64,000 nt of DNA from Psammoneis japonica (lineage: Eukaryota): positions 310,001 through 374,000 of the forward strand of contig QPGO01000014.1 in the NCBI GenBank assembly GCA_008632985.1, read 5' to 3'. The notes beneath the pieces were generated by a model, which made no database searches, had not been told where the DNA came from, and was given only the letters and a program-made list of their open reading frames with translations. The stretch's first letter is position 1, and each line of letters opens with the position of its first letter. Positions 1,404 to 54,279 of the stretch are shown here, in pieces. Position numbers and translations under genes: made by a program.

Positions 1404-1597
1404 TGACAGAACACCAAAGGTCGACAATGACAGAGGTGTGAAAGACTCCCTAAAGTGCCAGGACTGTGACAACACGAGCACTGGCAGATGAGAAAGTGAG
1501 AAGCAGATCTCAGAGAGATCTGCTCGTCCATCTAAATGGTCCAGCCATCATCCGCATCCAGTCTGTCCATCCTGTGGTGGGTGCAGATGGGCTGACA
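1404..1597 (-). repeat. 3' LTR of Copia-1
   Basis: Colinear with 8422-8615, 14 substitutions, no indels. Confidence 0.95.
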
Positions 1598-1774
1598 CCC
1601 TCCCCTGATCTGCAACATCTCAAGATGGAGAACAGTGCAGATCAAACCAAAGAACATGGATGATGTGAGGAAAAAACAGAGAGACTGGACATGGGACATG
1701 ACAAGTGTCCATGCCCAATGCGCAATCAAGCAAGGGGGCAATTCACAGCAGGGAGGCCACCGCGGAAAAAAATG

Positions 1775-6133: not shown

Positions 6134-6498
6134 CTTGCTGACATTAGTCGTGTCTCGGTGAGGAGAAAACGGGCAGCGTCGGAGATCCGAAACTAGCTGC
6201 GACGGCCCAATTGAAAATCCGAGGGCGGAGCACCAGATTTGGTCAAATTTTCAGGGTTTTCATGATGAGGGGGGAGCAGGCCTTGGGGTCCTTGGAACTC
6301 AGAAGCACGCACAGCTGCCTCCCTCTTCAAGAATTGGCAAAAGCGGACATGGAATCCCTTGACACATGGATTGTTCCGCAAGACTGGACAGTCGTCAAAT
6401 GAGTGTTCACCGGAGCAAACGAGACATGGTTTCTTGGAAGCTTCAGTTGGAGTGACTTTCAGCTTGTAAACTGAAGCCGAGTGGACATGGTGAAGGAG

Positions 6499-8274: not shown

Positions 8275-8421
8275 GTTTCTACGACCGTGAAAAATGCCGG
8301 GAAAGCGAGATAAAAAGTTGTCTGATCAGACGATGAGGCTCGCTCGATCGGCTCACAAAACAAATGAATCGAAACAGAGAGCTTGGTGCAGAGGTCTGTG
8401 GCACAGCGCATGGCCACAACC

Positions 8422-8615
8422 TGACAGAATGCCAAAGGTCGACAATGACAGAGGCATGAAAGACTCCCCAAAGCACCAGGACTGTGACAACACGAGTGCC
8501 AGCAGATGAGAAAGTGAGAAGCAGATCTCAGAGAGATCTGCTCGTCCATCTAAATGGTCCAGCCATCATCCGCATCCAGTCTGTCCATCCTACGGTGGGT
8601 GTAGATGGGCTGACA
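8422..8615 (-). repeat. 5' LTR of Copia-1
   Basis: Direct repeat of 1404-1597, followed by TSD AAAGC. Confidence 0.95.
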
Positions 8616-24850: not shown

Positions 24851-24904
24851 AAACAAATCTTTAGAATAGAGTGGATTTGCGGAGAGCGGAAGTAAAGGAG
24901 TCTT

Positions 24905-24976: not shown

Positions 24977-25088
24977 TGGTTTCCTTTTCTCGCTCTGCTG
25001 TCCACATTTTGAATTGAGAAACTGATTTCTTGTCGTGTTTCGTTGAGAGTCGGGTCTACTCGTAGAACAAGGAATGGCAGTTCTCTAG

Positions 25089-28493: not shown

Positions 28494-28759
28494 CTAGTGG
28501 TCGATTGGTGTTGTATGCCTTTTTCAGTTTATCATCTTTTTTATGAACATCTCTACCAGTGGATACTGCTTTTTCCATCCCAGCCAGGTTAGATATAGGA
28601 AGGAACGTAAAGGCGATAGTGTTGGCGGGGAATTCGTGTTGCATGAAATTCGAGCTCCGCACTCTCAAAAACTGTAGACTTTTCGAAAATGCGTCAGAAA
28701 GCTCGGCTGCGCCGTTTCGCAACAAAAGAAACTTTTTTTGGCAAATGCCCACAACTTTA

Positions 28760-30194
28760 ACAATGTCACCACAACACACCCAAGACACCACTGCTGTCAA
28801 CAATTGTCACACATCATTTGTGGAATTTGTTTGTTGACTCAGCGATGTGACAGCAGTCATTTTGAAGGATGAGGCACTTTTGACTTTTGAGTCACAAAAC
28901 CATCTTCACAAGGCATCAGCGCGAATGTCTGTGTGAGCACACAAGAAACCAAAAAACCGCAACTTGGCATTGTTCTTCATTGTCCACACAACACATTTGA
29001 TTGCTTGCCCTTGCAAAGCAACCATTTTTGAAGGACGAGAGGCATTTTGTGTCTTTTCCTCAAATTTTTGCTGAGATTTGAAACTTGCTCAGGACTCTGC
29101 AAGAATTTGCTGCCTGTGATTCAGCCCTTCACTGGCCGAGTGTTCAGAGAGAATGTTTTCATCAATGGCTGGCATCATGGGGGCTTGCTGCTGACTGCTG
29201 TTGCAAAAAGAGAGATTCTGTTCTTGGTCAGCTTTGTTGGCATGATCGATTGTGTTGCTGAAAAAATGTGCAAAAAGTGCGCTCTGGTTTGAGTTGACCC
29301 CGTGCCCCTCTGCACTTGCAAGCAAGGCAACAATGAGAGATGGAGGTGCAAAGGTTTTTCTGTTGCAGGGAATTCCTTGTTTGGCCCTTGATTTCCTCCG
29401 ACAAGGAAAGATGAGGAGGAAACCAGATGAGGAAAAAATGGTTGTCATGGCTCGCTGCGAAGAAGTTTGTTCTGGCATCATCCTTTCATCCACTGGCATC
29501 ATCCTTTCATCCACTGGCAGCAAACTTTTTTCTGCTGGCAGCAGACTTGTCCAGAGCATGCAGCTGCTAAAACACTTTAGATGCTGCGTTGGACAAGTGA
29601 GGCAAATGCTGTTGGGGGGACCACATTGTGGGAATCATGGGACCAACACAACAATGCCATTCTCATGGTCATGATTTGGACACTGGCAAATCCGTGCACA
29701 ACGGCATGACACAGAGGCAGAAGTCCAGACTGCATGCTTGTGGTCTGGCAATTGCTTGGCCAAGGATTGATTCAGTTGACGAACATCTCACTCACTCCAC
29801 TCACAGGCTTTGAAATTGGTTGGCAATCATCAGCCCCAAGTTTAAATCCAGCATCTGTGAAGCAAAACGGCTGGCTTTGCAAGGCACTCATGCTGTTGCC
29901 AGCTGCTTTGGCATGGCATCACCTGATGGTGATGCCAATTCAGGCTGATTGCTGCATGCCCCTGCCGCACTTTAAGTGCGCTGGGGGTGTGGGTCAGCTT
30001 GTTTGTCGGAGTTGCGGGGCGGAAGTGCAGCAGCACCTTAAAAACAGATTGTGGGTTTTGTTTTGTTGGGGAGCATGTTGTTGGACAATGAAAAATTGAT
30101 TGTTGCAACATGGCTGCAAGTTGCAACCAACACGGCACTTTTGTCCAGCAGTTGACTCATCCTGTTGCAAGTGACAGAATCCACAGCTGCCAAA
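28760..30194. other. Heavily degraded TpA/CpG-poor sequence, continues at 31792-32380
   Basis: Composition only. Interrupted by the deleted Copia copy. Confidence 0.5.
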
Positions 30195-31786
30195 TGTCAG
30201 CCCAACTGTCCCATGACAGACAGACTGTGTGTGGATGATGATCATTCAGACAGATGAGCAGATCACTCTGAGATCTGCCTCTCACTTTTTTTCACTGGTG
30301 CTCATGTTGTCACAGTCCTGCAACAGTGATTGGGGAGTCCATTGTGCCATTGTCTCAATTGCCCTTCGGTGTTCTGTGAGGTTGTGGCCTCACGCTGTGC
30401 CACTGAACTCTGTGCCACACTTTCCATTTTGGTTCATTTGCTTTGTGAGCCAATCAAGCAAGCCTCATCTTTTGCTCCCAAAAGCATGCTTTGTGAGCCA
30501 ATCAAGCGAGCCTCATCTTTTGTTCCCAAAAGCATTTCTTTCTCACTTTCCTGGCATTTTTCATGCTTGTTGAAACACACCAGATTTCCTTGTGTGCATG
30601 ACCAAAATTGTTTTCACCAGATGCAACCATGGCCATCTCCTGGCCCTGCAAAAGCCACTCCCACAACTGTTGCAGAGATCTGCTGTGATTTCCAACCACA
30701 TGTCACCACACCGCATCTCCACGCATCTCTGAAAGGGCTTTGCATGGACTCCACATTTCATCTGGATCTGTTCTTTGAAGACCCTGAGCATGCTCAACCT
30801 GAGAAGAACATCGCGGACTTGTTTCATGATCATCTTGTCAATCAAGCATTCCCACCTTGCACAACAGACCTCGCCAACACACAGTCTGTCAAAGCAATTG
30901 TGGATCAAGCACCTCTTCAAGTTGTTGACCCTGACAAGCCTTGTGTGTTTTGCTTGACTCCTGAAGCTCCATCTTCCATGATCAAATTGACTCTTCAGAA
31001 TCACAGACAATCTTCACACATTCTCGTGTCAATGCAGCATGCCCACATTGATCCTGACATGCAATGGAATTGTGGAGATCGGAACAAGTTTTCTCTAACT
31101 CCTGGATGCACAACTGTTGTTGGTGTGAATGATCTGGCAGCAGCGCTCAAAGAGTTTGCATCAAAAGCCAAGTTCTGCCTTTGACTGCTGCTGGCAAGAC
31201 ATCAGGAAGCGCTGCATTGTCCACAACATCAAAACACCCATTCAACCCCAACACTCCACCCAAGGATGTTCACGAACGTTGTGATCACAAGGAATGTGGT
31301 GACATCACATTGAAGAGCTCGCTCACTCATTTTGACCATGGACACCATCACTGTGTTGATGCCAAGGCTCCAGGATGGGTGCTCCATGCTTGCCATGCTC
31401 AACACATGATGGGACACTGCCGCTGATGTTTTTTTTTCGTGGCGGCCTTCCTGCTGCACATTGCCCCCTTGTTTGTTGCACATTGGACTTGGACACTTGT
31501 TGTGTCCTTTGGTCTCCATCCCCACATCATCCCTGTTCTGTGGATTGATCTGCATTGTCTTTCATTTTTAGACATTGCAGATCAGGGGGGAGGGTGTCAG
31601 CCTGTCTGTCCCGCAATGGACAGACTGCACATGGATGATGACCAGACCATTTTTTGGACAGACAAGCAGATCTCTCTGAGATCTGCCTCTCACTTCTTCT
31701 TTTCTGCCAATGCTCATGTCATTACAGTCCCAGTGCTCAGGGAGTCCATCACACCATTGTCCTCATTGCCCTTCAGTGTTCTGTTG
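30195..31786 (+). mobile_element. Internally deleted (TRIM-like) relative of Copia-1
   Basis: LTRs 30195-30379 and 31595-31786 homologous to Copia-1 LTRs, TSD CCAAA on both sides, PBS-like GGTTGTGGCC, PPT AGGGGGAAGGG. 5' gag is fused near 31365 to the last codons of RNase H. Confidence 0.88.
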
Positions 31787-32403
31787 CCAAAACACTTGCC
31801 AACAACTTCTTTTTCAATGCCGCGCCAACTGCGCTCAATGGGCAAGGCAGATGATGCCATTGGGGACCACATTCTTGAGGACAAAGAGATGAGCTCCAAT
31901 GGTCTCTTCCAGCTTCTTGTTCTGTCCCAGCTGAGTCCACAACAAGCTCAAGTTGGGAGAAAGTTGTTCAACACATGCGTTTGGCAACAAGAGCTCCTTG
32001 ATCTTTCTCTGGCTGCCCGCATTGTCATCTTCGACAATCGCTGTCATGACAAGTTGTGTTCCATGTTGCCGGCGCGCTCTTGTCATTGTGCTTTTGTTCT
32101 CTCAGGCTTTGTTGCTGACAGTCGCGTGCCTAAAAACAATGTGCAGGCACACCACAGCCATCCCTGCTTGTTGTTCATGAGCTCGAATTTGCACACAGAG
32201 ACACAATGCTCCAGAGCATGTCTGTGCATTTGCACAGATTTGCACCAGTCGCATTGTAGAGTGATGTTGTTTGCCTGCCCCAATGAACTCTTTCTTGTGC
32301 ACAAAACACTTCTCAAGCCTGCCGGATGGGTTGGAGGCACATTTTCTTGGTGCAAGCACGTGGAATTTAATGCAGCTGCACACAGATGGTCTCTGGAGAC
32401 CAT

Positions 32404-34209
32404 GGAGTCACCTCAAAGTTGTTGAAACTGTGACTCAAATTGAAAAGCTTTCATCCTTGAACAATTTCACAAAATTTTGCAGTGTCTGCATTGTGGCACT
32501 GTTGGCAAATTGGGCTGCACAAAATTCAGCCTGTTGCCCATCACACATGCAAGCAATGAACAGCTGCACTTGGCGCTTTGTGTGGCTTTCAACAACAAGA
32601 AAGCAATTGCAGCATTTGTTGCCAAATGACTTTCAACAATGTTTTGTTGAAAGTTGTTAACTTTCAACACTTTTTTGTTGAAAGTCGTGACAACTTTTTG
32701 TTGAAACAAGTGACTTTCAACAACTGCTTTTTGTTGAAAGACACAACTTTCAACAACCTCGCCAGAAAATGCATTGGCACAAAAATCTGATTGGACAAGT
32801 GACGTGGTCTGAGACAAGCACGCATGACCAATGTGCATCATTGAATGCAGCATGTGGAACAATTCCCACTTTGCACAGCAGCAAACTGCAGCGCAGCACA
32901 ATGAAGCAAGCCGACGGTGTCCCACTTTACAGCGTGATGTCTCAACAATGCTTGCACCATTTTCCCGTTTCTTTTTTCATCATTGGGAGCAATTGCACAA
33001 TGCGTCCTGCTGGGTTTGCCCCATTGTGTGTCATTGAGAATTGTGGAATTCTGTTTTGTTTGAAACCTCAAAGCAGCTTCAAATTTGGAGAAGCATGCAC
33101 AAAGGATGCAGGTCAGTGCCACTCAATTCTCAGTGGTGCTGTCACCAGTGTTCTCACTTCTGAGTCTCTCATTGATTCCAACAAGACTCAGAACAGCAGG
33201 TGGGATTGCCAGGCTCAGAGCACAGAGCAGCCAATGGTTTGGCACCAGTGTTTCACTCAGAGCTGCAGATGGTGCCTGATGATGCACTGGGTGAGATGGA
33301 AGTGCATTGGAAGGCAGCTCACTTGGAGCCATCAAAGGTGCTCCGCTGTTGGCAGATTTTAAGAAATTAAGAATTCTGAAACCACTGCAGCCAAAAAATC
33401 TGAAACTGCTGTGTTGCACACTCTGAAGCTGCCACCACAAACTTTGAAACTGCTGCCATGAATTGTCAAACTGCCAGAACCACCAAACCAGCACTGAACT
33501 GCTGAGCCAACTTCAAGCCACTCTTGGTGGCTTTGGCAAGGCATGCATCACTCCAGCTGTTGTCATCACGATCTTTGACTTTTGTGTCGCCCAACTGCAG
33601 TGCAACCCTGAGAACAATGGCTGTCAGTGACCCTGACATGTGTCTCCTCCTCAATGGACAAACGGCTCACCCTTCACCCACCACAATGTCAGCTGGAATT
33701 GGGTTCACCACTCTTTGATGTGTGGTCAATGATGCAATTGAGGCATGATTTCAGGTTGAAAGAGCTGTTGAATGCACTGACTTTCAAGAGAATGTTTTTG
33801 TTGAAAGCACAACTTTCAACAAAAAGTTGTTGAAAGATCTAACTTTCAATGGATTTTTTTTTAAGATCTAACTTTCAACAGATTTTTTTGAAAGATCCAA
33901 CTTTCAACAGATTTTTTTGAAAGATCTAACTTTCAACAACTTTTTTGTTGAAAGATCTAACTTTCAACAACTTGTTGTTGAAAGTTGGTTGTCTGTTGAG
34001 TTGTGACAGCAAACTCAATGTGAAACATCTGTGGCTGAGTGTTTTCACACAAGGAAAAGGCAATTGTGTTGTCTTCAATGGACGCATGTTGCACAGCACG
34101 CAAAAATGTCCATTTTGTCAGAGTCAACAGCGGGAATCAGATGCACTGTGCCTGCATGCACAAGCACAACAGGACAGCTTTGAGCTTTCAACAGATTTGA
34201 GGTGACTCC
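32404..34209. mobile_element. Degraded non-autonomous TIR DNA element with subterminal palindromic arrays
   Basis: TIR GGAGTCACCTCAAAGTTGTTGAAA / TTTCAACAGATTTGAGGTGACTCC. Arrays of ACTTTCAACAA...TTGTTGAAAG at ~32628-32757 and ~33780-33986. Confidence 0.7.
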
Positions 34210-37200
34210 CACATTTGCAGGTGACAGTGCACAGATGGTCTCTGGGTGCTGGAGACCATCTGTGCATGTTGAACAGGGTGTCACAATGTCCAGATTGTCA
34301 TCCACAAAGCAAAGCATGATGAGATGCAATGGGCATGGTGCAATTCTTTTAGGTGCTGATGTTGCAATGACCAAATTGAGATTGTGAGGAGAGGAGACTC
34401 TCAACGTCTCCTCTTCTGAATCACTTGAGTGATGTTTTTGTTGCTGACATGATTCTTTGCAACGGTGAGTCACAATGACCATCGTGGTGATTTGACAATC
34501 TTCACACTCCCTCTCAGTGTCTTGCAAGTTGAATCAGCCAATCAGATTGAGTTTTTGTTGCTCTGGTTGCCATTGCTTGTGAAGAGCAATTGCCCTTCAC
34601 ACTCACCAACCCACGACCAAAGGACACAAGGCCTCAAGTGCATCAGCAGTCAAGGGCTCATCAAGACAGTCTGCCAGTTGATCCTTTGAATCAATGCCCT
34701 TTGTTGAAATCTCCTTCCTTGTGGCACAGTCACGGAAGTGATGCAACTTGACATTCAAGTGCTTGGTGCATGGTCTGCACTCATGTGCGTGCGCCATCTC
34801 CAGAGCAATGCTGTTGTCTTCAAACACTCGGCAATGAATGAATCTTGGGCTGTGATGTCTTGATGGGGAATCCGTGCCACTTGAGTTCTTTCAGCATCTC
34901 CATCAAGGGCATGGTTTTTTGCAGAGCACATGACAAGCCAGTGCACTCAGACTCAGCACTGCTTGTGAGGCTGTCTCAGTCTGAAGCTGAGATTTCCACA
35001 ACATGGGACAACCTGCACAAGCAACAACACAACCATGTCATGATCTTGCTGTGTCGCAATCTTGGCATGCTTCTTGTGGATCCCAATTGCCGGAATCCTC
35101 ACCTTTTGCAGGTTTCAGGACAGCACCCTTGTCTCTGGTCTTGCACAAGTGTTGGCCCAGCCATCTGATGGCCTTGCCATGCTCAACCTTGGGATCTGCT
35201 GCAAACTGTGCACACTGGTGGGTGATGCATGCAATGTTGCTTCGGGTGCACTTCTCCAAATGGCTCAGCTTTCCAACCACAGATCTGCAGTTGAAGGAAC
35301 CATCAAACAGTTCTGAGTTAGAATGCCTCAGGAGAATTTTGGAGGATGCGCGTGAGCATCCTTTGGCAGTGTGTTTGGCAAATCCAATTGCAAGTCCTTG
35401 AGCATTTGGTCAATTGGGTGTGGTTGCGTCAAATGAATGGTGCCATTGTCTTTTCTCACGACATTGACACCCAGAAAATCCTGCATGTCTCCTTCCACAG
35501 CAATGTCAAGCTTTGCCTCTTTAAGTTCCTTGATGATTTGATCAACTTCAATTTCATCAGGACCGGCAATGAGTGAGTCGTTGGTGCACAGGAGACACAT
35601 GGTTTTCCCACAATAAAACACACACTTGTCAATTTTTGATTGATCAAATCCAAGCTTGTTCACAAGCCTGTCAACCAAGTGCTTGTTCCATGCTCTGCCA
35701 GCCTGTTTTTGACCATGTGCATTTCAACGGAGCTTCAGAACACAGTCCTTGGCATTGCCTTTGTCGATTTTGAATCCCACTGGCATTTCCATGTAAAGCT
35801 CTTTCTCTGCTGGTGCTTTAGGAAAGGCTGAGTTGCAGTCCAATTGCTTGGAATGCCACCCATTCATTGCTGTCAGGGTGAGCTTCATTTGAATGAAATT
35901 TTGTGATGCTGCTGGCGTGCATGTCTCATCACAGTCTCACCCATTTCTCATTCTCAAGCTGTCAACATTCAAGCGAGCTTTCCACTTCTTGACCTTGTGA
36001 GTCCCAATGTTGTGCTTGCATTTCATCTGCCACACTGCTGGCAGCACCTTGCTGTCTCTTTTCACCTTTGATCATGGAATGATGGAGAAGTCACCATTTT
36101 CCATTTGATCTGTCACCTCCTTTTGCATGGCTTTCAGGAATTGTGTGCAATCTGGTTCCTTCATTGCCTGATGCACGCACATGGTGTCAGGATCTGCTGA
36201 TGCTTCACAGGCAAGGAGGGGATTCTTCTCTTCCCAGAGCACTTGTGAGTCTTGGGATGCATTGCAGCCAAACACATTGTCTCACCCTTGACATTGCTCC
36301 TTGTTTCAGCACTGATTTTAGACATCATGGCTTGCATCAGTCTGCTGACCGGTCGGCTTTTACACCCTGAACAAGTCACTTTCAGTGCATTGACGCCACT
36401 TCATGTCTCATCAGACTTGCGCTCACTTAGAGCTGCTTCCAGAGATTCAGTCGCAGGTGTGGATCCACCCTTGTCTGTTTGAGTTGTGTGTGTGGACATC
36501 TTGCCTTGACGCCACTTGGCCAGTGGCCACTGCAGTGTCACCGCTCTGTTGTGGTGGCTCCGGATCTTGTGGGTCAGTCCATTGAACTTGTTTTTGTTGT
36601 TTCTTGCCCTGCTCAGCTCCCTCTGAATTTGCTTTCTGCTTTTTCATGATTGGAGCTGGTGTGGATGCCGTTTTGGCTGCTCCACCAGTTTTGGCCTTCA
36701 TTGCCTCCCTCTTGGCTGTGAAGCCGGCTTTGACCTGCCATTGCAAATCAAGCTTGTCCTGCTGCACTGTGTGGAAGGATGGATCATGTTTGACATGGAA
36801 CTGTGGGCTCATCAGAGCAGTGGCTTGATCCAATGCAAGCACCACATTCTTTCCATGCATTGGGCTTTGGCCCAAGTAGACTCCGACCCTTGATCTTTGC
36901 TTCCGTTTGTGGCGCAGCAGGTTGGATTGCCACAAAGTGCCATCACGAATGTGCGCTGGACAGCCAAAAGGTTTCCAGTGCTTTGGGTTTGCAGAGACTC
37001 AAGATTTGGAGAACATCTTTGGTGGGGTCAACTTGCCCTTGTTTTGTTGTGCACGTTGTTGGCCATTGGCATCACGTGAGGCCACAGGTTTGCTGTGATT
37101 GCCTTCTTCCACTGGCTTTGAGCATGTGTTGACATGCTCCGTGCCAGATCTTGAAGTTTGCAGATTTGGCACTTGGCCATGCCGTTCATGTGATGAGCAC

Positions 37201-40200
37201 CTGCTGCTGTGAAAGCAAGCTGTTGCCCCTGGGTTCGACATGCGAACACCCAGTTGATTGCTTTGAAGATGCTGTTGTTGGTGTGGCAGGCTTCCACTGT
37301 GACTCCACAGCTTTTGGCATGCTGCTCAAAAGCACGTTTTCCCTCTGATGTCTCTGCTGCCAATGCCCTCTTTTGCAGGTGCACGTGTCCCAACTTGGAG
37401 CATTGATCCACGCACACTGTTGCACACATGTGCCATTTGGTTGTTGGCCATCTCTGGTCATTTGAGCAATTGACCCCAGTGTTTGTGATTGCAGTTGATC
37501 TGCTGAGATGACTTGGCCTGGGCGTCAGGGTTTTTTTGTCAGTTCCTGGTTGCATCACATTTTTTGTCCCATCATTTCCACTTTGTTGCCTTTGCACACA
37601 GGCACTTGGAGCAGACAGGTGCATTGCATTTTGCCAGGTCCTTGGGAAGTGTTCCCAATCTTGCCATAAATTGCAGTTTCTTGAAACTCATGTGACCAAA
37701 TTGTTGATGGCATTTTAGGAGCGGTGATGCCCCAGTGAACTGTTGGCAATCTTCTTCATCCTCCACCATGGTTGGTGGTTTGGGGTCCACTCCCTCTGAG
37801 GTCAAACTTCACAAGTTGTCCGTGTCTCCCTCATGCTTGCCACTCAAGTTTGGCCCATCTAAGTTGTCATGAAATCTGCCGCCGTTGATCCGTTGCCTTC
37901 CTCAGGTGCCAACCCTGAGTCTTGCAACAGATCTTGGCCCTCAGGTTGCCATTCATTGCACTGTGCATCCACGTTGCATTCACCTTCAGCTTCATCTTGG
38001 CCCTCATCATCAATGACAACAGCAGCCTCTTTGGCTGGAATGGGATCCTCAACTTCATGTGCTGGGTCATTCTCTGCTTCTGCACAGAATGCTTCATGCT
38101 TTTGGCACCCTGGTGCCAAGTGAAACACAGCCACATTGGTCATTTCGCTCAGTGGCACAGCCAGTTGATGCCTCTTTTGATTTCAAGAGAGGGTCACTCA
38201 TTTTGAGTCGGCATTGCTGCCTGTGCCTTTGCTTGGTTTGTTGTCCCTTTGGGTGTTGGGGGCTCAGCAGTCTGACCTTTCCACTTGGTGGCAGAACAAA
38301 TTTGGTGTCTTGAGCTTGTGTGTTCTGCCTTCATTGTCATTCCACCTCCATGGCAGGGTGCCCACCTTGAGTCCAGTTGTTCTCAAATCACCGAACCCTT
38401 GATGGCTCTGTTGCAATCTTGCAACTCACCAACAAAGCCTTCCACACAATTGGATGTGCAACCTGCAGCCTGATTGTCAACCCCCCGACTGGTCCAGAAT
38501 CAGCATGGAAGGCCACCGTGTGTTCCAATGTGCTCTTGTGTTGAGCCTGCATTGCTGCCACCACCACAGCCATTGCTGTGGCACAGCATCACAGTTGCTT
38601 GGGTCTCTTGAGCTTGTCCATGGACTGGTGGAGCCTTTGGATCCTCCCTCTTCTGGGTGAGTCAGTGTTGGTGTCGATCACTTCAATGGAGTGTGTGACT
38701 CGTTCTCTGATGCTGTGCAATGTGTCAGTCAAATGGCACCAACCAGAGCGTAGCCTGCACCATTGCTTGCACTTGGGTGTGCAGTGTGGTGATTGCCTTG
38801 GGTTGTCATTGCAGCAGAACAACAAGCAGATGACAAGAATTGCAGCCTGTGGGCTGCAATGAGCGCAGGCCATTGAATGGTCTGCAATGATCAGTGTCAG
38901 AATCATCAAGGTCGTGCAATTGTGGGCTGTCGCCTGCCATGCAAAAGCAGAGCTGTCACTTTTAAGAAAGCACAACACAGCATCACAAGGTTCCCAATTG
39001 CATTTCCATCTCACACATGATTGCAGCAGTCACAACCATGGCCGTGCTCCAGGAGTCATTTGGAATCCTTGTCCGACCCTTCCTTGTCGACGACTGCCTT
39101 GCATGCCTTTGCAAGCTTGGTGCATCTCTTTTCATTGCACCTGTGGCCAAACTTCTTGTCCCATCCATTGTCACTCTTGTCTTTGGCTGGCCTTTTCTTG
39201 TTGAACTGCTCTGGATTGAATGCACAATTCTCTGGGGTGTGCTTGTGCCACTTGCCAGGGCATTTGCCCCCAAGGTCCTTGTGGCAGCAACAGTTTGGTG
39301 CTGCTCCACTCCAATGCTTTGGCTTGGAGATCACATCCTTGGCTGGGTGCAAGTTGTCCTTCATCTGCTTGGGCATGCCTCCCTTCTCACTGTCTTTTCC
39401 TTTGCCATGCTTGGAGTCATTCCAGCTGCTTCTGGCATTGTCCTTCTTGGCTCGCTTTTCGATGCCTTCAAGCTCCGGGAGTTTCACACGGATCGTGCTT
39501 GTGGTCACGTTTCCATCAAGGTGCGACTCTTGAATGATGACTTTGAGGAGCAGGCAACCAGAAATCTTGTCTCCAATCTTGTGGGACTTGTCATGGATGT
39601 GCACCTTGTCCACTCCATTTTTGGAGATCGAGCCAATGAGACAGCATCCAAGCATGACAGTGTCTTGGGCCGCATGGCAAGGATTCACAATGCATGACTC
39701 CTCGTGTCTTTCAATGCATTCCAAGCTGATCTCACCACAATTGGTGAGCAGGTTTGAGTGCATCACATCAGCATCAGCAGGGTCCTTGGGCATCTCATCA
39801 GAATTCCCATGACTGGGTCATTCCATCCGAGCAAGCTTGCGCCCTGTTCTCTCGGCATTCTTGAGGAACTGAAAGAGCTTGCCTGGAGTGCAGTCGAACT
39901 TCTCCCCACTTTGGCTCTTCCAAACCAGTTTGGAGTGATCTTCATCCAGCACTCTTGCAAAAATCCACTGCCCCCATGATTGCCTGAGCTGGAGCCAGAG
40001 CAAATGGAATGTCCTTGTCGGATGACGACAAGACACTCGAAGCATCCGATGTGTTTCCAGTCTTTGGTGCAGAGGAAGCATGTCACAACATCCAGAGCAA
40101 CATCCACAAAGCAAAGCACAATGAGACACAATGGACATGGGGCGATTCTTAGGTGCCAAGTGTTGCAGCGACTAAATTGAGATTGTGAGGAGAGTTGCTT

Positions 40201-40267
40201 GAGTGACGTTTTTGTCGCTGATGACAGTCTTTGCAACGGCGGGTCACAATGACCATTCTGACGATTT

Positions 40268-40449
40268 TGCAAGATCTAGCTTGAGATGACTTGACAAAAG
40301 TTGTGGGAGAACCAAGAAGAGACCCGATCAGCGCAATCGCTGATTGGAACTGACTTCCAACGGCTTCCTGAGTGTCCAATGCATCAGTCAATGTGCATGT
40401 GTCAGAGAGGGCACACTTGGTCATAAAGTGCATGTGCCCATCTCATTCA
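40268..40449 (-). repeat. Gypsy 3' LTR (TpA-depleted copy)
   Basis: Colinear with 45744-45925, 17 transitions. Confidence 0.95.
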
Positions 40450-40499
40450 CTCTTCCCCTCCATGGTGCAAGGAACACGCGCACCATTGGAACCACTTGA

Positions 40500-43400
40500 C
40501 TAAAACTCAAACCCAACACGCACGGTGAAGGGAACCCAGATGTTGGGAAGAAACCCTCAACTCCGGTGCGGCACCACGCGGCGAACATTGATTCGCTCAA
40601 TGATGTGCGGTGCTCGCAGCACCGAAACAGTCCCGTTGGCGTGGACTTGTGCAATTCAAAACGGACCACAGGCTCGTTCTTCCAACTTTGAAGGATCCAC
40701 CGACTTGATTGACACATCTTGACCAACCAGACAATCGCAGGAATGGCGCTTCGCATTCTGTCGTCGTAGATTCTCGTCAACCAATGCTTGTCGGTTGGCT
40801 TGTGTCGCAGCAAGGTCGGAGACAACTGGCAAGTCCAAAATCACATCACGTTGAAACACTGGAGCTCCACTTGAAACACCCACAGACCTTGAGTGGGAGC
40901 ATCGTAAAGCACAAGAGGCTGCAGCAAGGGCATTGTCCACAATCTGCTCGGCCTGTTGAACATTTAAAGGTGGGTCAGCGACAACCACAGCACGTGAGAT
41001 GTTAGCTGCTGTCTGGTGCATTCGTTCACAAATGGAGTTGGCTGTAGGATTTCGAGACGTCGTCGGCGCATCAGCAACACCCGCTTGATTTGGTGGCATT
41101 TGGAACTCCCAACCAATGAATTCTCCACCATTGTCATGGATGCATGATTCGGTCTGGGACAACGAGCTGACCAAAGATTGCGAAACTTGCCAGTCACATG
41201 CTGAGAAGTTTTGTTGTCAGCGCGCTTGAGTTCAGTCAATCCAGTGACAGCATCAATGCAAGTGAGAGCACTGAATTCAATCTCTTGGTCTTAAATCGGC
41301 ATTTTCCACGGTCCAATGAGATCAACCGCCACTTCCGTCCACGGAGCCAAAGGTGCTTGACGTTGAGGCAATTCTCCATGTCCAGGACCCAGCTGTTTAA
41401 ATCGTTGACACGCATCGCAAACAAATTCGTTACAACATCGACGCAATGCAGGATGACACACATGAGTCCGAACACTTTCACACAATTGCACAACTCCACA
41501 ATGGCCCAACACACGATGGCACCATGCAACGGCATCTGGCAACAACGCAGCAGGAATGCAAATTTTCCAGGCTCCAGGCGGATCATTCAGATGCAAACAA
41601 CAACAAATCAAGGGACGATGATTCACAATTTTGACCACGAACTGCTGCGGATTTTGTTGTCTTTGTTGGTTCAGTTGGAGGTCTTCGAACTGGAACTGTT
41701 GTGTCCTCAGCATCTCAGTGGGATTCGGCATTTCGTCCAGCGTTGGGTAATTCAAAAAGCACTCAAACAATTCAGGCTCATCAAGCAGAGAGGAAAAGGT
41801 GGCGTGAGACTCATCAGAAGGATCAACCGGAGCACGGCAACACTTGAACCTGCAAGCGCCCAACTCCAAATCTTCCTCTTCCTTGGCTTTGCTCAGTTCC
41901 TTGGAATCCAACTTTTCAAAATGAACAATTTTTCCTTTGCGTTTGCTGCTTGGCCCAAGGCTCTTCCCCTCCGAAGGTGGATCCATGCGTGGGAGTCAAG
42001 AAAAACAATCGGCGAGCACGTTGTCCTTGCCTTCAACATGCTCAAAGGTGGGCACGAAATCTTCGAGAAACAGTCGCCAACGGAAGGACACGCTGTGCAT
42101 TCAAAGTGTGACAGGTGAGATTTTTGTGATCAGCATGAACAGTGATGTCAGCACCGAGCAACATGGAGCGAAATTCCTTGAAGCACATGACGACGGCCAG
42201 GAGTTCTTTTTCCATTGTAGAGCAGTTGCATTGAGCCGCCGAGAGCTTCTCAGACCAATGTGCCACAGGTTCACCATCTTGAACAATGGCGGCGCCCATC
42301 TGGCAGTCTGATGCATCGGTGCAGACATGGAATGGTGGGTTGTGGTTAGGACAGGCCATCAATGCTTCCGCCACAATTGCTGCTTTCATCTCCTTGAACG
42401 CTTTCGGACATGATTCTGTCCATTGGAACTGACTCTTGCCTGTCAATTCAGTCAGAGGTGCAAGCAGGTGAGAACAGCCAGGCCACACATTGCGACAATG
42501 GGTTGCTGCACCAAGAAACGACCGGAGCTGAGTAGCATCCCGTGGAGGTTGCATTTGTGGGATCGCCTCGACCTTCTTTTTCCACGGTTTAATTCCAGTT
42601 GGAGCAAGCCAATGCCCCAGGAAATCAGTTTCTTGGACACACCACTCGCATTTCAACGGGTTAACTTTCAAACCATTCTCCTCGAGATGATGCAGCACCT
42701 TGTCAAGATGAGAGAGATGGCAACCAAAGTCAGCATCAAATGTGCCAATGTCATCAACACAAGTTTCAACATCCAAACCATGTGGGATCTTTTCAACAAT
42801 GGACTGAGCAATGTCTGGAGCTGGCTTCAATCCCACAGCCGTGCGACAACACTGGAACTTCCTGTGCGGAGTTGCAATCGTAGCGAGCTCCTTGCTTTCA
42901 TCGTCCAACTCCAAATTGTAGTAGAACACAGTGAGGTCCAATTTCGTGAAGAACTTGTAGCCCGCTCTCCGCTGTAGCACATCTTGAATGACTGGCAAAG
43001 GACATGCTTTTCGTTTGAGGACCTTGTTGAGCTCCCAAAAATCGGACACCCATCGTGCTCGGCCGTCCTTCTTCGGAGCAATGAAGGTGCCGGCTGCCCA
43101 TTCCGTAGGTCCACATGGTCGAAGTACGCCGAGGTTCACCAAATGCTTCAATTCCTTTTTGAACACTTCTTCATTGACTCGAGCAACAGGAAACGGTTTT
43201 GAGTGACATGGAACAGCATTTTCATCCACTTCGAGGTGCACCTTTTCATGAGGACAGTGCCCCAAAGTTCCGTCAAACAAGGTCGAACATTTTTCCAATG
43301 CCGCCAGTGGCTTCTTCTTTTGCTCCTCCGTGAGATGATCCAAGTTCCGAACCACCTCGCTGGATCTGTTGCTTCACACTTGGCGTCGAGCACACAGTTG

Positions 43401-44035
43401 TCACACCCATCATCGCATCCACAGTCCGACTCGTCTTCATGATTTTCATCAAATTCATCCATTCGATCTAAAGCCACACACCAGTCACAAGATTTGGACC
43501 AATGACGAGGTTCCTTCATTGGGATCACATGGTCCAGCCATCGCAGTGTCCTCGCATCATAGTTCAGGTTGAGACCAATCTTGTCCAAGAAGTCTCGACC
43601 CAAAATGATGTCATGCACACACGGAGCATCAAATGCGTGAGCCACACAGCTGTCAATCCTCCCAGTTTTGTCAAATTCTGGTGACACGACATCGCTCAAG
43701 GCTGCCCAACGACCCGATTGGAAAGGACCAGCCACGGTTTGGAAAGCTCTGACTCCATGTTCGTCAACAGATGGTGTGGCTCCTCGAGGTAAAACTTGGG
43801 ACAAAATCACAGTGTGAGAACCACCTGAATCGAACAAAACACGCATCACACGATTTGACTCATGCCATTGGATTGATTTTGCAACAAGCAGTGCAGATGG
43901 GACCAATGCGGTGCGCGAGACTTGCGAACTCATTTTGGGGAGAGGAACATTGTGTTCAAATGCATCTTGATCAAACACATCCCCCTCTTCATTCATGTAA
44001 TTTTCTGCAGCATTTTCAAATTCAGTGGGTGACAA
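40500..44035 (-). pseudogene. Gypsy pol (protease, RT, RNase H, integrase), frameshifted
   Basis: LFDSGGSHT protease, KLDL and TCVDD (from YxDD) RT, CTDASDCQMGA and EKELLA RNase H, HxxLGH/CDAC, VDLIGP, HDNGGEF, NSICERMH integrase. Confidence 0.92.
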
Positions 44036-44173
44036 TTCGTCAGGATTTTCAAAACAATCAAAAGCAAAACATTCATCATTTCATTCAGGCAAAACACAAT
44101 CATTTTCTTCAACAAATGCTTCTCTCACAGGCAATTGGGAGCATTCAGCTCCGGAGCATTCAGCTCCTTCTTC

Positions 44174-45430
44174 TCAGAACTGCCGAGGAAACTGCCCATC
44201 CGGCTGAAACCTCACCACACCTCTGCATCTTGGAGGGCCTCGTCCGATCATGTCGAAATGGCGCACATCACCACGAGGAGCTTCTCGAGCCTGGTTGTCA
44301 TTGTTCACATTGTCTGCTTGAGCAGCATGTCCGTCGGCCTGTCCTTGGCCTCCACGGTTGTTGTTTTCATTGCAACAATGTTGACCACCACCTTGGTTGC
44401 CATTGTCATTTTGATTTCCATTGTTGTTGTTACAATGGGTGCCACGACCTCCTTGGTTCTGGTTGCCACGACTGCCAAAGCGTCCACCACCTCCACGGCC
44501 TTGACCACGGCCTCCTTGGAAACAACCTCCGCCTCGACCTCCACCGCCACGGCCTCCTCCTCGACCGCCACGGTTTTGAGGCCCACGAAAGTTAGGGTTG
44601 TTTGGATTGTCACAACATTGGCCCCACGCATGCCTTCCATGGTGCCACGGGACCGGACACAGATCACCTGCCTTCGGTTGGCCCTTGCTGTCCTTCTTGT
44701 CACGGTTGCCCTTTTTGTCACTGGAGTTTCCTCCGTTGCCATCACTGGACTTGCGTTTCTTGTCATCTTGACCGTTGGCAAACACCTTCTCGTCACTCAC
44801 GCAGGCTTGGATGTCAACCATAGAATCCGCAACAAGGTTCTTGCCCACACGAATGTGGGACTGCTGCCAGGTCAAAGGGAAGGTGCAAAAGATGACATTT
44901 TTCTGCTCCTGCTCTGCAAGTGCAGGAACGGCGCCAGGCAAATGGTTGGTGCAACGAAACAACGTCTCCATGCGATCAACATGAGTTTCAGATTCCACTG
45001 AATGAGGCTTTTTGCAAGTGGGCAAATGCATCTTCATCGTGTCGCGAGCTGTCGGTTTCACGCAGGGCAGACAGCAGGATGAAACAGCCTGATCAAATCG
45101 AGCCACCGTCCGTTGATTCTGTGGAATGCCCGCGGTGACATTCTGCCATTTTGCCTCCGCAGTTCCTTGGAGACAATCCTCGAAAGCATCAAATAACTCC
45201 GTTCCGGCATCACAATCTAGCTGTCTTGCCACCTTCCGGAACCTGTCCTCCACATGCAACAATGATTCAATCCCATGCTCTCCTGTGAAAATGGGACACA
45301 TTTTTGAAAGTTTAGTGCCATCATCGAAGGTTTGAGTGAGCTTCACTTCCTGTAGCTCAGAATCCACGAATTTGGTTTTGTGTTCAACACACGCTTTCTC
45401 CAAGGCTTCTTGATGCATGGCGATGAACAA
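44174..45430 (-). pseudogene. Gypsy gag-like ORF
   Basis: 418 aa with a CPV..H..H.W..C zinc-knuckle-like motif and RGG-rich tail. Contains no Tyr. Confidence 0.8.
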
Positions 45431-45743
45431 TTTCAGCGATCAAATGATCAACTGTCCACAAGACAAACGAAACAAAACGTTCCCAATTGATCCACACAAC
45501 GAGAACAATCAATGACCAAACAATGACGAATTCAAGAGTGGCAACACGAGATTCGAGTTCAAACAAATGCTGTTCCGAATCGCCAATTTCACGAGTGTAA
45601 TTGCGCTGCACTTCTGATCGACTTCGAATGAAATTTTCTGCACGAGCTCGCAAACAAATTTTCTCTCTTCTCGACAACACTCTTCGCGTTGTCATAAAGT
45701 TGACAATGCAATGAACAAGCTATGACAACGACTGTAATTACAG

Positions 45744-45925
45744 TGCAAGATCTAGCTTGAGATGACTTGATAAAAGTTGTGGGAGAACCGAGAAGAGACC
45801 CGATCAGCGCAATCGCTGATCGGAACTGACTTCTAACGGCTTCCTGAATATCTAATACGTTAGTTAATATACATATATCAGAGAGGGCACACTTGGTCAT
45901 AAAGTACATGTGCCTATCTCATTCA
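45744..45925 (-). repeat. Gypsy 5' LTR (TpA-intact copy)
   Basis: Direct repeat of 40268-40449. Retains 15 TpA, including a TATA-like tract. Confidence 0.95.
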
Positions 45926-46029
45926 GATTTGACAATCTTCACAGCAGCAGGGCCATGACCCTGGATTACCGTTCCGGTAGGTGAAGTGCACAGTAACAGA
46001 GACACTCATTTGAAGCCGCCTTGACAAAA

Positions 46030-47286
46030 ATGAAAGATGAAAATCAAGACAATAATGAAAGAAGTTCCGAGGAATCGCCAGCTCCATCATTAAGACCAAC
46101 ATGCAATCGCCTTGGATGGGTAGGGCGAGTCATTATTGTGTTGGCATTGCTTGCAATATATAAAATATCGTTGACAGCGGAGAAAATAAAAAATGTGGTG
46201 CAAGAGGAAGAAGGAGAAAGTTCTATGGCCAAACAAAACGTCTCAAAAGGGTCTCCTAGCGCAACTACAAACTCAACGAAAGCTCCTTTAGGATCTTCAT
46301 CGGATGCGGCTGATTCTTCGTTTGATTGGGACGCCATGGCAGATCGCCTTTGTCCGAATATGGTTCCCAACGTTGCATTGGGTGAGAAACTCTTTCAACT
46401 CGCACGTCAAGAATTGCCTGGCAACAATGCTACCTGCCCTAGCAATACCGACGAGATGTCTAGACAGTTTTATCAAACCTTTTGGGGAGTCAAGAGCTAC
46501 ATTACCAACAGCCAAAAACGGATTGCCTTTGTTCCCATTTGGAAATGTGCCAATGACGAATTGCGTGCTTACTTGGAACGAAACTTTGAGAGCGATAATT
46601 TCTTTGCCTTGACGCAAACGCAACGAGAGAGCATGGCGTGTTTAGTGACCGTCATTCGAGATCCTGTCTCCCACTTTTTATCAGCGTACAATGAAGTGGA
46701 TTTTCGACTCGACAAGGGGCGATCGGATCGAAGTAGTGTCGCTAGTACATGGAACTTTTATCACGCTCCAAAAGGAACGAAACAAAGATTTGAACAGTTT
46801 TTGATTGATTTCTTGTCTTGTCCATTTGAACGTGGGTTTCGAGGCATTTACAAAGATTTATGGGGAGGCTATCCTCACACTCTGGAAATTGGTCATACGT
46901 ATTCCATGTCGTCAGTGTTGCACTATTTTGCAGTCGAGACTCGAGTCAACGTGACGAGCAATCTCACGTATTTGCCAACACTCACCAATCTTTCTCATAC
47001 GTTTGGACCCTTTTTGGTACACAATTGTCCCGAAGGAACCTTTTCCAATCAAAGTGAAAGTTGGTTAAGGCATGAAACTGTGTACACAAATCACCATGAA
47101 TCTTCCAAGGATGTATCTGGTTCGTATCATGCGGCGATTGACGTATGGAAACAAGCTTCGTCTTTTTCCAAGGCTTTGTGTGCCATGCATATTATGGACT
47201 ATGCTTGTTGGAATGGCTTGCCAGATGGCATACCACATGTGTGTATGGAAGTGTACAAATCGTATGATGAGCAAGGAATTCTTTGA
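46030..47286 (+). CDS. Type II membrane sulfotransferase-like protein
   Basis: N-terminal TM, IWKCAND and IRDPVSHFLSAYNE motifs. Confidence 0.75.
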   Translation: MKDENQDNNERSSEESPAPSLRPTCNRLGWVGRVIIVLALLAIYKISLTAEKIKNVVQEEEGESSMAKQNVSKGSPSATTNSTKAPLGSSSDAADSSFDWDAMADRLCPNMVPNVALGEKLFQLARQELPGNNATCPSNTDEMSRQFYQTFWGVKSYITNSQKRIAFVPIWKCANDELRAYLERNFESDNFFALTQTQRESMACLVTVIRDPVSHFLSAYNEVDFRLDKGRSDRSSVASTWNFYHAPKGTKQRFEQFLIDFLSCPFERGFRGIYKDLWGGYPHTLEIGHTYSMSSVLHYFAVETRVNVTSNLTYLPTLTNLSHTFGPFLVHNCPEGTFSNQSESWLRHETVYTNHHESSKDVSGSYHAAIDVWKQASSFSKALCAMHIMDYACWNGLPDGIPHVCMEVYKSYDEQGIL

Positions 47287-48750: not shown

Positions 48751-49733
48751 CAAGTGTGTTGCAGCTCATCACAGAACTCAAGAGCTCACAACTGGCGGAA
48801 GAGCATCCAATTTGTTTTGTGAGGTTCATGAGACTGGGTGGGTGGCACAGAGTGAGACAGTTTTGGAGTCAATGCCACAACCCATTGCAACCATCACCTT
48901 GCCGCTGCTGTCACTCTGCCACCTCAGCTTGCTGTCACCCAGTTTGTTCTGTGTGGAAGTGTTGATGGTGGACAAATGCTGGGGAGGGGGGAGATTCGTC
49001 CTGCTGCTGGTCAGCAAGGATTCTTTCTGAATGAGGCACAAATTGGTTTGCAGCCTCAGCTCCTGTGCTGAAGACATGCCTTGGGCCTGACCCACTTTTT
49101 AGCCCAAGTGTCAAAGCACTTGTGCCAACTTGACTTTCAATTGACTTTTGACTGCAACCCAAATGAGTTGCCTGTCAATGTGAAGCATGACATGCTTGTG
49201 ACCAGTTGTGGGATTGAGGAGATGAGGAGGAGCAATGAGTGTGTGTGTTTGCTTCAGCACCCCAGCAGTCTTGTTCCCCACCCTGTTTGGTCTTTTGTGG
49301 GTGCCCTGTTCCCAAGTGTGAGGAGGATGAGCAAGGACTCCAAAAAAGCAACATCAAGAACATTCTGGCAAAGTCAACAGGGGAAGAGGCATTGCATTGA
49401 ATGGTTCATTGATCAGCCTCACTGGACAAACATCTGCCAGAAGAATGAGAACAAAGATCCACTCTGAATGAGGCCACAAATTGGGTTGTGCCTCAGCTTC
49501 TCTGCTGTGGGCCTGACCTGCTTTGGCCCATGTGTTGAAGCACTCACACCAAAACATTGCTTTCAACTGACTTTTGATTGCTGATTGACTTTTGATTGCA
49601 TTTAAAATGAATTCCCTGTTGGCCAGTTGTGGGACCATGGAGAGACCAGGAGGAGCAAAGAGCAAGTTTTTTGGCACCAGATCACTTTTTTTGTTTGGCA
49701 TCTGCCTTGTTCTTTTGGCTCTGCCAAGAAAAA

Positions 49734-50249
49734 ATGAGCAATTGTCCCTTTCAAAAAACAGAAGAAGAGTGACATTGGCAATTGACTTTGGAAGAATGTC
49801 ATGTGCTTCAAGAGGGTGGCACCGAATCATGCTTTGATTCTTTCCCAAAACTGGTTGCTTTGCACGCAAGGCCTGCAAACACCCCCTGCATTCAGTGGCA
49901 TCAAAATTTCAAGACATGGGTTGGGACATGCACTCCAAGTGTCATTGTGGCAATGGCAAGCCTCACATTGGTGTGCAAGAGAAAAATGAGTTGAGACAAA
50001 ACTCACCTTGGCTGTGCTTGGTGTGTCAAGTGTTTGCCACTCAAGCAATGCGCTTGCTCCCCTTTTGCAAGACAGGTTTGCTGCAACAGCTGAGGGTCGC
50101 ACATGGGTGCCATGTGTTTTCTGAGCACCACCACAGCAATGCAGGAGAGCATTGGCAAATCAACAGCTCATGCATGGTGCACGTGCCAGACGACCCCCAC
50201 CTGGAAAGCATTTCAGTGAGAAAGACCGTTGGGTGTGTTTTCAAAGCAA
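49734..50249 (+). pseudogene. msrB: Hypermutated paralogue of msrB (intron retained, Sec codon and SECIS degraded)
   Basis: Colinear with 24323-24850 including intron and 3' flank. Homology extends ~49670-50625. Former TAA stop reads CAA. Confidence 0.9.
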
Positions 50250-50860
50250 GAAGTGTCAACAAATCTCTGGAATGAAGCAGATTTTTACAGAGAATGGAAG
50301 CAAAGGAGTTTTCATGAATGCAAATGATGGTGTGTGTGATCAAGAAAATGGGCAGCCAGAAAGCATGGCACATGGTTTCCTTCTCTTGCTCTGCTGTCTG
50401 CACCACTTTGTTTTGAGAAACTGACTGTGTTTCGTTGAGAGTCGGGACTCGCAAAATGAATGACAGGTCTCTGCTAATTGATTGTTGTTGCACTAACACC
50501 CCTGGCACACATTTTTCAGTTCGTCATCGTTTTTTTGCATCTCTGCCAGAGGAAGCTGCTTTTTAAATCCCAGTTTTAGTTGGCGGGGAATTCGTGTAGA
50601 ATTCGAGCTCCGCACTCTCAAAAATTATTACCTCCGGCCGACGCTTATATCATCACGCGCGTCACGACTCCTCACGGCGAGAAGTATGAACACCGATCGA
50701 CCCTTTTGCTTTATCCTTCATCATTTTTTGTTTCCTTCGTTGCTATTTGCTGACGCTTTACCTTTTCACCTTTGCATCCTTCCAGAAAGCAATCCACAAT
50801 CCATCGACTTCTCAAATCCTTTCGCTTCTTTTTAAAAAACTGCTCGTACGCGAATTCGTC

Positions 50861-53956: not shown

Positions 53957-54279
53957 TCTGATGCAGATGCGTGCTACAGTATGTTGATGTTGTCGTTGAT
54001 GCTCAATGGGAGTTCAGAGTGTTCTTTTGCGTGTTCTCATGTCTCGTGGCTCGTGGTGCGGTATGCGGTGCCGGTTCCGATCTTTTTTCAGTCGACTGCG
54101 GATGTCAACAGCCGCGCGCCGCGCCGCGCGTATCGAGCCTCCCGTCTCACCCCACGAAGGAATCGACTCGTTCGACTTCGTCGAGCTTTCGTTTCTTTGT
54201 TTTGTGATGGCTTTTCACCGCCATGGTGGCCTGCATGCCGGGCGTCATTGCTGACCAATTGCAGAAAATCTATGCTCAA

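Follow-up and report, generated by a model that had tools for sequence, protein, structure and literature searches.

Loss of TpA after insertion in a Gypsy element of Psammoneis japonica, with one long terminal repeat spared

How can two once-identical copies of a sequence at the ends of a single transposon come to differ by almost nothing except one kind of dinucleotide change, and why should one copy carry all of it? This question is raised by a Gypsy retrotransposon at 40268-45925 in a 64,000-nt stretch of DNA from Psammoneis japonica (GenBank assembly GCA_008632985.1, contig QPGO01000014.1, positions 310,001 to 374,000 of the forward strand), which is called the window below and from whose first letter all coordinates are counted. 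The inner of the two long terminal repeats (LTRs), next to an older repeat domain, has lost nearly all of its TpA, while the outer one, next to a host open reading frame (ORF), has kept it. The answer that is considered probable here is that a TpA-specific mutation process acted on a silenced domain after insertion and was limited by the edge of that domain.

The two LTRs (182 nt each) stand in direct orientation with the termini TGCAAG...ATTCA and align without gaps at 17 mismatches, every one of which is a transition, the pair being free of transversions and indels. Read as inner against outer LTR, the mismatches are TG for TA (7), CA for TA (6), TG for CG (1) and CA for CG (2), and the single one outside this signature is a G at 40372 against an A at 45848, where AGT faces AAT. 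The inner LTR holds 2 TpA and 4 CpG and the outer LTR 15 and 7, with a dinucleotide ratio rho(TpA) of 0.16 for the inner and 0.99 for the outer copy. All 16 signature changes fall in the inner LTR, with zero sites in the reverse sense (16:0, binomial p = 3e-5), and 17 transitions out of 17 have a probability of about 1e-3 if a 2:1 ratio of transitions to transversions is assumed. The asymmetry is confirmed as real and far from chance. An earlier note on this DNA had described the same differences (13 at TA, 3 at CG and one AAT/AGT) and the same TpA counts of 15 and 2; pairwise alignment reproduced the former, a recount gave the latter, and the example strings quoted there are present. The element and its flanks are made up as follows.

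40263..40267: left target-site duplication GATTT, the same 5 nt as at the right end
40268..40449, minus strand: inner LTR, the 3' LTR of the element (TG...CA), the mutated copy by alignment and by TpA and CpG counts
40450..40461, minus strand: polypurine-tract-like run adjoining the 3' LTR (reverse complement GGAGGGGAAGAG), a putative function read from the sequence
40450..45600, minus strand: TpA-depleted Gypsy interior with broken gag-pol (34 TpA in 5151 nt, rho 0.10)
45601..45743, minus strand: boundary zone on the 5' untranslated/primer-binding side, in which TpA reappears (45695, 45721, 45735, 45739)
45744..45925, minus strand: outer LTR, the 5' LTR of the element, the spared copy (15 TpA, 7 CpG; TA-rich cluster at 45848-45877)
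45926..45930: right target-site duplication GATTT, the same 5 nt as at the left end
46030..47286, plus strand: neighbouring host ORF of 418 codons, counted from its first ATG, which is divergent from the LTR and has normal TpA
28701..40267: older TpA- and CpG-depleted repeat domain (rho 0.05 for TpA, 0.26 for CpG), with the Gypsy inserted at its right end

The minus-strand coding of the element and the purine tract beside the inner LTR identify that LTR as the 3' one and the outer as the 5' one; the labels outer and inner, which come from the earlier note, are amended in this sense and kept for position. The ORF at 42042-43373 (minus strand) matches RVT_1, RT_RNaseH and RT_RNaseH_2 in Pfam, and the ORF at 41291-41995 (minus strand) matches Integrase_H2C2 weakly (20.6 bits, under the Pfam cut-off of 25.5), which gives the order reverse transcriptase (RT), RNase H and integrase that fits Ty3/Gypsy, the integrase match being below cut-off. 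A tRNA-complementary primer-binding site beside the 5' LTR was not recognised on inspection, no formal search having been made. The empty insertion site is preserved in a paralogue of the older repeat at 34275-34493, which is about 80% identical to 40077-40267 and runs across the site, with 34489-34498 reading GATTTGACAA uninterrupted. A local alignment of the older repeat with the DNA to the right of the Gypsy was rejected as spurious (41 of 60 differences are transversions), and the older repeat stops at the insertion site.

Direction, specificity and timing of the changes

Two LTRs alone give no polarity, and independent tests of direction were therefore needed. The RT/RNase H frame of the Gypsy was aligned to its 60 best homologues, and in 15 columns of conserved tyrosine it was found to hold Cys (TGY) nine times, His (CAY) twice, Phe once and Tyr three times. 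The catalytic YxDD reads CVDD, and the Tyr content of the frame is 0.7% against a homologue mean of 4.2%. At 231 conserved columns there are 52 mismatches, 22 of which are restored by a single step back to TA (TG>TA 16, CA>TA 6) and four by a CpG step, while the control reversals GG>GA, AG>AA, CG>CA, CC>TC and CT>TT restore 0 of the 52. Related Gypsy loci from metagenomes have a rho(TpA) of 0.48-0.98 in 31 of 31 cases, against 0.10 in this interior. Two further pairs of sequences in the window carry the same changes.

1404..8615, minus strand: Copia element with LTRs at 1404-1597 and 8422-8615 and the target-site duplication AAAGC at 1399-1403 and 8616-8620
49680..50472, plus strand: MsrB/SelR pseudogene copy in a depleted block (SelR 16.6 bits, frame broken), with its functional paralogue at 24269-25086

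The Copia element lies wholly inside a depleted domain and both of its LTRs are mutated. This pair (194 nt) has 14 differences, all of them TpA- or CpG-signature transitions with 0 others, and five are double differences in which CA faces TG at one dinucleotide. In LTRs that were once identical this means that a TA (or CG) ancestor has changed independently in each copy. Conserved Tyr columns of the Copia, 21 in number, hold Cys 13 times, His five times, Phe twice and Tyr once; the pol frame contains 0.22% Tyr against 3.6% in its homologues, and its RVT_2 match reaches 24.6 bits, below the Pfam cut-off of 31.6. Among 100 mismatches at conserved columns, a TpA step restores 37, a CpG step 12 and each control 0-1. 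For MsrB, the functional gene at 24212-24616 (SelR, 37 bits) allows polarisation against the pseudogene: each of the 23 TpA that align from the functional copy is changed, to TG in 13 cases and to CA in 10, with neither CG nor TA among the outcomes, and 33 of 38 aligned CpG are changed, to TG in 17 cases and to CA in 16. Since the coding columns, the relatives, the MsrB pair and the Copia LTRs agree, the direction claimed in the earlier note is established as TA loss, and a gain of TA in the manner of repeat-induced point mutation (RIP) can be excluded.

A similar loss of tyrosine is seen in two retroelement proteins from databases. P0011 (jgi, 751 aa) contains 0.8% Tyr and has Cys or His in 12 of 17 conserved Tyr columns, and P0350 (ena, 498 aa) contains 0.0% Tyr, a hint that traces of the process occur in further data sets. 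A search for the P0011 locus returned 31 relatives, with the contig of P0011 itself not among them, and a 23-nt LTR pattern gave no match in metagenome_contigs.

The change is specific to A preceded by T. In the polarised MsrB comparison, the frequency of A>G per base reaches 0.48 where T precedes, compared with 0.113 for a preceding C, 0.095 for A and 0.067 for G. The WA-type mutator that had been suggested from the single AAT difference is not borne out by these values, as A after A is changed without excess, and the AG>AA reversal restores 0 of 52 mismatches in the Gypsy and 0 of 100 in the Copia. Because A>G is enriched solely after T in the MsrB pair, the AAT>AGT change in the LTR is best read as background. 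The further claim that both strands are hit is upheld by the near balance of TG and CA outcomes (7 TG and 6 CA in the LTR, 13 and 10 in the pseudogene). As for the base on the 3' side of the target, the preference for a pyrimidine is not significant (23/43 vs 13/33, p = 0.25), and A looks disfavoured, with 5 of 21 such sites changed.

The timing of the loss can be read from the two ends of the Gypsy. The inner LTR has lost 13 of 15 TpA (87%), and the interior, with a rho of 0.10 against about 0.75 in relatives, has lost a similar fraction. With the inner LTR as depleted as the interior and the outer LTR undepleted, the pattern fits a loss that post-dates insertion better than a master copy that was already mutated when it was inherited. 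Beside its 13 TpA losses, the inner LTR shows 1 change at about 138 other positions. By simple arithmetic this amounts to about 2 hits per TpA against about 0.007 changes per other site, so that the TpA process would exceed background by an order of 100-fold or more. CpG loss in the same DNA lags behind it and stands at 3 of 7 sites in the inner LTR and, as given above, at 33 of 38 in the MsrB pseudogene, where all 23 TpA have been lost.

The boundary within the element and its rival explanations

Depleted domains were called from 1-kb bins and with a two-state hidden Markov model (HMM) on 100-bp bins. In about half of the 64-kb window TpA is extremely scarce and TG+CA abundant, and this half is distributed over five blocks (1-9400, 12901-13700, 28701-45700, 47701-50400 and 54001-55100) which contain 3-8 TA and 199-227 TG+CA per kb, against 37-47 and 144-152 in the remaining window. 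The corresponding rho(TpA) is 0.05-0.11 in the blocks vs 0.52-0.59 in gene regions, and CpG is likewise depleted in the blocks (rho 0.16-0.74). Two of the blocks hold the Copia and the Gypsy and one the MsrB pseudogene, the rest being unclassified sequence or repeats without Pfam matches. The normal parts hold sulfite oxidase, sulfotransferase-domain, LtrA-like, alcohol dehydrogenase, MsrB, biotin/lipoate ligase-family and other genes, all with normal TpA.

In the Gypsy, depletion extends from the inner LTR through the interior and stops at about 45600-45700, roughly 50-150 bp inside the element; TpA returns at the four positions of the boundary zone and is then found all along the outer LTR. 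The statement that once-identical sequence is spared at the domain edge is correct for the outer LTR and extends to about 100 bp of unique interior, both of which are unmutated. The distance of about 100 bp to a host gene comes out as 104 bp from the LTR end to the first ATG of the neighbouring ORF (429 codons, 418 from the ATG at 46030), and it holds provided that this ORF is a gene. Several observations favour position as the determinant. The inner LTR carries the three CpG losses along with the TpA losses, so that cytosine-methylation decay and TpA loss have a common boundary. The Copia pair lies well within its domain and has both LTRs mutated, and the functional MsrB paralogue is untouched. 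The depletion past the end of the Copia (8616-9412) would count on this side too, if that stretch is unique DNA. On these sequence patterns, targeting by chromatin position rather than by homology is a reasonable inference.

The process can be pictured as follows. An older, silenced repeat domain would have received the Gypsy at its right edge, and a mutation process would then have acted in place, converting TpA to TpG or CpA by A>G change on either strand of duplex DNA. This process would be confined to transposable element (TE) and repeat domains that also show CpG decay, would have cleared the interior and the inner (3') LTR of about 87% of their TpA, and would stop roughly 50-150 bp short of the far end, leaving the outer (5') LTR, 104 bp from the ATG of the divergent host gene, with its insertion-time sequence. 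The sequence shows the changes themselves, their direction and TpA specificity, that they followed insertion, how they are arranged in domains, and a rate that is high beside other substitutions. The chemistry of the process may be an enzymatic deamination of adenine in DNA to inosine, which is read as G, as proposed for Bigelowiella natans (bioRxiv 10.64898/2026.01.13.699255), and its boundary may be one of chromatin state between a silent, cytosine-methylated domain and an open host promoter region.

Several points weigh against this account. The interiors show a bias towards the sense strand: conserved Tyr has become Cys rather than His in a ratio of 9:2 in the Gypsy and 13:5 in the Copia (22 vs 7 in total), and the TG share on the sense strand of Gypsy pol is 0.58 vs 0.45 +/- 0.03 in 14 relatives. 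Either the process is imperfectly strand-symmetric, or part of the load of the interior was acquired before insertion. Depletion edges can also follow sequence units, as the block edge at 50472 is the end of the MsrB homology, with TpA back at 50475, within 3 bp. The polarity of the 17 LTR sites is carried over from coding columns, relatives, the MsrB pair and the Copia. Family copies were sought by aligning contigs of two sequencing runs to the element at a likeness of at least 80%, and these runs may be the assembly's own data.

This sense-strand excess of A>G is seen in the pol regions of the Gypsy (41291-43373) and the Copia (1775-4450), both on the minus strand, with none in the LTR or MsrB comparisons; it may reflect a flanking-base preference, a transcription-linked bias or some editing before insertion.

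The alignment of contigs shows a highly repeated family, with 3505 contigs aligned, of which 592 have a likeness of at least 99% and 2913 fall below 99%. Summed depth over the Gypsy is 1500-5000 vs 84 in the flank bin, a figure which is not a copy number. Variation among the copies is dominated by transitions (209 A>G, 178 T>C, 239 G>A and 270 C>T), any one class of transversion having 7-31. Per-site states come from 40 listed sites of 1082 variant positions, none of them in the LTRs. Among these listed sites, TA survives in other copies against CA or TG in this one at 44743 (67% of depth) and at 44719 and 44690 (39% each), and at 45353, near the boundary, this copy has TA and all 10 other contigs have CA.

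The existence of many family copies, some of which keep TA as at 44743, provides the material for the first of the two rivals that survive best, in which a mutated outer LTR and about 100 bp of adjoining interior were recently overwritten from an unmutated family copy by gene conversion or recombination. The intact target-site duplication argues against unequal exchange between elements. A random donor should moreover bring more differences than are seen, given that 2913 of the 3505 contigs have less than 99% likeness, whereas just one of the 17 LTR differences lies outside the signature and there are no indels; the tract would also need to stop precisely at the end of the element. Taken together, conversion appears unlikely, though it ranks with promoter selection ahead of the other rivals.

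Equally unlikely is an action of the mutator on the whole element, followed by purifying selection that purged mutated alleles of the outer LTR as part of a host promoter. The location would suit such a role, as just 104 bp separate the LTR end from the ATG of the divergent ORF and the TA-rich cluster of the LTR lies about 150-180 bp from the same ATG, but selection would have to guard 13 TpA, 3 CpG and the four adjacent interior TpA, the step is abrupt rather than patchy, and there is no evidence that the promoter of the ORF uses the LTR.

A sequencing or assembly artefact, in which modified bases (e.g. methylated A or C) in silent chromatin are systematically miscalled, could draw on the fact that TpA and CpG are both palindromic and thus possible sites of symmetric modification, and on the possible identity of the matching sequencing runs with the data behind the assembly. 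Miscalls mixed between strands would, however, predict unchanged TA and doubly changed CG, of which there are 0 at the 23 polarised MsrB sites. The 592 contigs that match the element at 99% or more come from a run with even, short-read-like depth, the unrelated database proteins P0011 and P0350 show a like loss of Tyr, and de novo changes of this kind have been observed in a different alga. This explanation is very improbable.

Still less credence is due to editing before integration, either by an ADAR-like activity on RNA or by a deaminase on single-stranded cDNA, which would have left the LTRs unequal. The sense-strand excess of the interior described above is what such editing would produce, and the minus strand of the 3' LTR is in principle editable once it has been copied. 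Against this, the LTR changes are found on both strands (6 TG and 7 CA in the sense of the element), the mutation load of the 3' LTR equals that of the interior, and a non-retroelement pseudogene and unclassified repeats bear the same signature. As the source of the asymmetry it is extremely improbable; as a partial contributor it could have acted on the interior only.

No better placed is a RIP-like change of C>T at CpA (G>A at TpG) that created the TA of the outer LTR from an original preserved in the inner one: the 13 TA differences taken alone match RIP of the Neurospora type, but the three CpG sites would require changes in the opposite LTR, the TE domains are TpA-depleted (rho 0.05-0.10) with coding evidence for TA loss, the CA-vs-TG double differences of the Copia are impossible by this route, and the host appears to be a diatom. 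Biased gene conversion, which would lack TpA specificity, and selection against TpA or stop codons, for which dead elements are the wrong target, were rejected by reasoning.

Known systems and significance

Several known processes share single features with the edge-limited TpA loss preferred here. RIP in ascomycete fungi changes C>T at CpA and thereby creates TpA, depends on duplication and mutates both copies. The present process resembles it as a dinucleotide-specific transition hypermutation that cripples transposons and shifts composition domain by domain. It is unlike RIP, as the earlier note had argued, in that TpA is destroyed (rho 0.05-0.10) and one copy escapes, namely the outer LTR or the functional MsrB. 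The deamination of methylated CpG accounts for decay of silenced transposons and cannot yield TA>TG/CA; in the window it accompanies TpA loss in the same domains at a slower pace. The hyperediting of repeat RNA by ADAR and the action of APOBEC on retroelement cDNA take place before integration, on one strand and on retro-copied sequence only. They have clustered deaminase-type transitions in retroelements in common with the window, in which, by contrast, both strands are changed, the LTRs have diverged after insertion and non-retro sequence is affected. The mutagenesis of WA motifs by polymerase eta in vertebrate somatic hypermutation produces A>G at TA and AA; the likeness lies in A>G at A after T and the difference in AA, which is without excess here.

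The nearest likeness is to Bigelowiella natans, where, according to the accessible text of the preprint, 231 of 302 de novo mutations of mutation-accumulation lines fell in two integrated viral regions, all but one of these being A>G or T>C and those all at TpA (bioRxiv 10.64898/2026.01.13.699255). The rate given there is about 6e-7 per site per generation with only some lines hypermutated, an ADAT2-like protein is proposed as the candidate, and the Discussion notes that ADAR prefers a 5' U (bioRxiv 10.64898/2026.01.13.699255). As far as that text goes, the two cases agree in A>G/T>C change at TpA on both strands, restricted to particular foreign or silent regions, in a rate far above background (by orders of magnitude there, and indirectly from LTR pairs here), and in a long-term depletion of TpA with gain of CpA+TpG, which was found there in 1-kb windows that form clusters. 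The depleted coding sequences of B. natans show an enrichment of RT and DDE domains, and the depleted elements here bear RT. On the same basis, they differ in host (a chlorarachniophyte of the Rhizaria against an apparent diatom), in targets (giant-virus and virophage inserts against LTR retrotransposons, unclassified repeats and a host pseudogene) and in degree, depletion being mild in B. natans (rho 0.45 for nucleocytoplasmic large DNA viruses) and near saturation here (0.05-0.10), where it is coupled to CpG decay. The boundary in the Gypsy is resolved at base-pair scale within one element, and an analysis of LTR pairs or boundaries does not appear in the accessible text of the preprint.

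The assignment of the host agrees with the named relatives of the Gypsy and the Copia, which are almost all from diatoms, the exceptions being two Copia matches labelled as a bacterial metagenome bin. The sulfite-oxidase ORF shares 60-71% identity with its best 120 database matches, and all the named ones are from diatoms. The window is thus very probably diatom DNA with no close relative in the database. No report of TpA>TpG/CpA hypermutation in diatoms was found in the open-access literature and bioRxiv, where TpA-specific hypermutation of foreign DNA was found only for B. natans, in the 2026 preprint. The window extends the same signature, close to saturation, to a second lineage, one that is ecologically dominant, and to ordinary transposons. 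Relative to what is accessible of the preprint, three things are new: an internal clock from LTR pairs that are almost without ordinary substitutions, the action on integrated duplex DNA after insertion, and a boundary next to a host gene that permits mapping to about 100 bp. With the mappable boundary and the LTR clock, the question of targeting, be it by chromatin state, homology or foreignness, becomes directly testable.

A wider proposal can be put forward tentatively, with rather more doubt than belief. Diatoms would possess a defence based on adenine editing in DNA and guided by chromatin domains, which would erase TpA from the duplex DNA of any sequence in silent, cytosine-methylated domains, be it a transposon or a host pseudogene, before ordinary substitutions could build up, and which active promoters would halt. 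Shared by a diatom and a chlorarachniophyte, it would then be an old and widespread equivalent of fungal RIP that works by the opposite chemistry.

The loss of TpA also has a practical consequence. Long overlapping open frames are found on both strands of the dead elements (e.g. 40421-45918 and 1775-8325), and they persist because TAA and TAG stops vanish in depleted domains. Such frames, in which Cys or His stands in for Tyr, are liable to deceive gene prediction and to lower the scores of domain searches, the Copia RVT_2 match being an example.

Other observations in the window

The neighbouring ORF at 46030 has no Pfam match; a lead towards a sulfotransferase comes from protein Atlas features only. 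Past the target-site duplication of the Copia, in the direction of the sulfite-oxidase gene, about 800 bp (8616-9412) are depleted with a single TpA at 9172, which may be either another repeat fragment or a spreading into unique DNA. Two islands of about 0.8-1.1 kb (12901-13700 and 54001-55100) lie between host genes without a Pfam match and may be solo LTRs or small TE fragments.

Among the TpA that survive, TTAA, TTAG, CTAA and GTAG are in excess, a figure partly inflated by tandem repeats. A repeat of 29-31 nt in five copies at 33796-33980, within the old depleted domain, holds several surviving CTAA sites. At the end of the LtrA-like ORFs and just past it, two direct repeats of 231 nt (17404-17634 and 17768-17998) are 100% identical and 364 nt apart, and represent either a very recent duplication or an assembly artefact. 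The HMM also called a block at 18901-19600, which was rejected as a depleted domain: it is a GC-rich coding tandem repeat of 33 nt with 110 TG+CA per kb, called solely on account of its GC content, and the array extends over 18859-19726 within an ORF of 671 codons (18445-20460, minus strand) that has no Pfam match.

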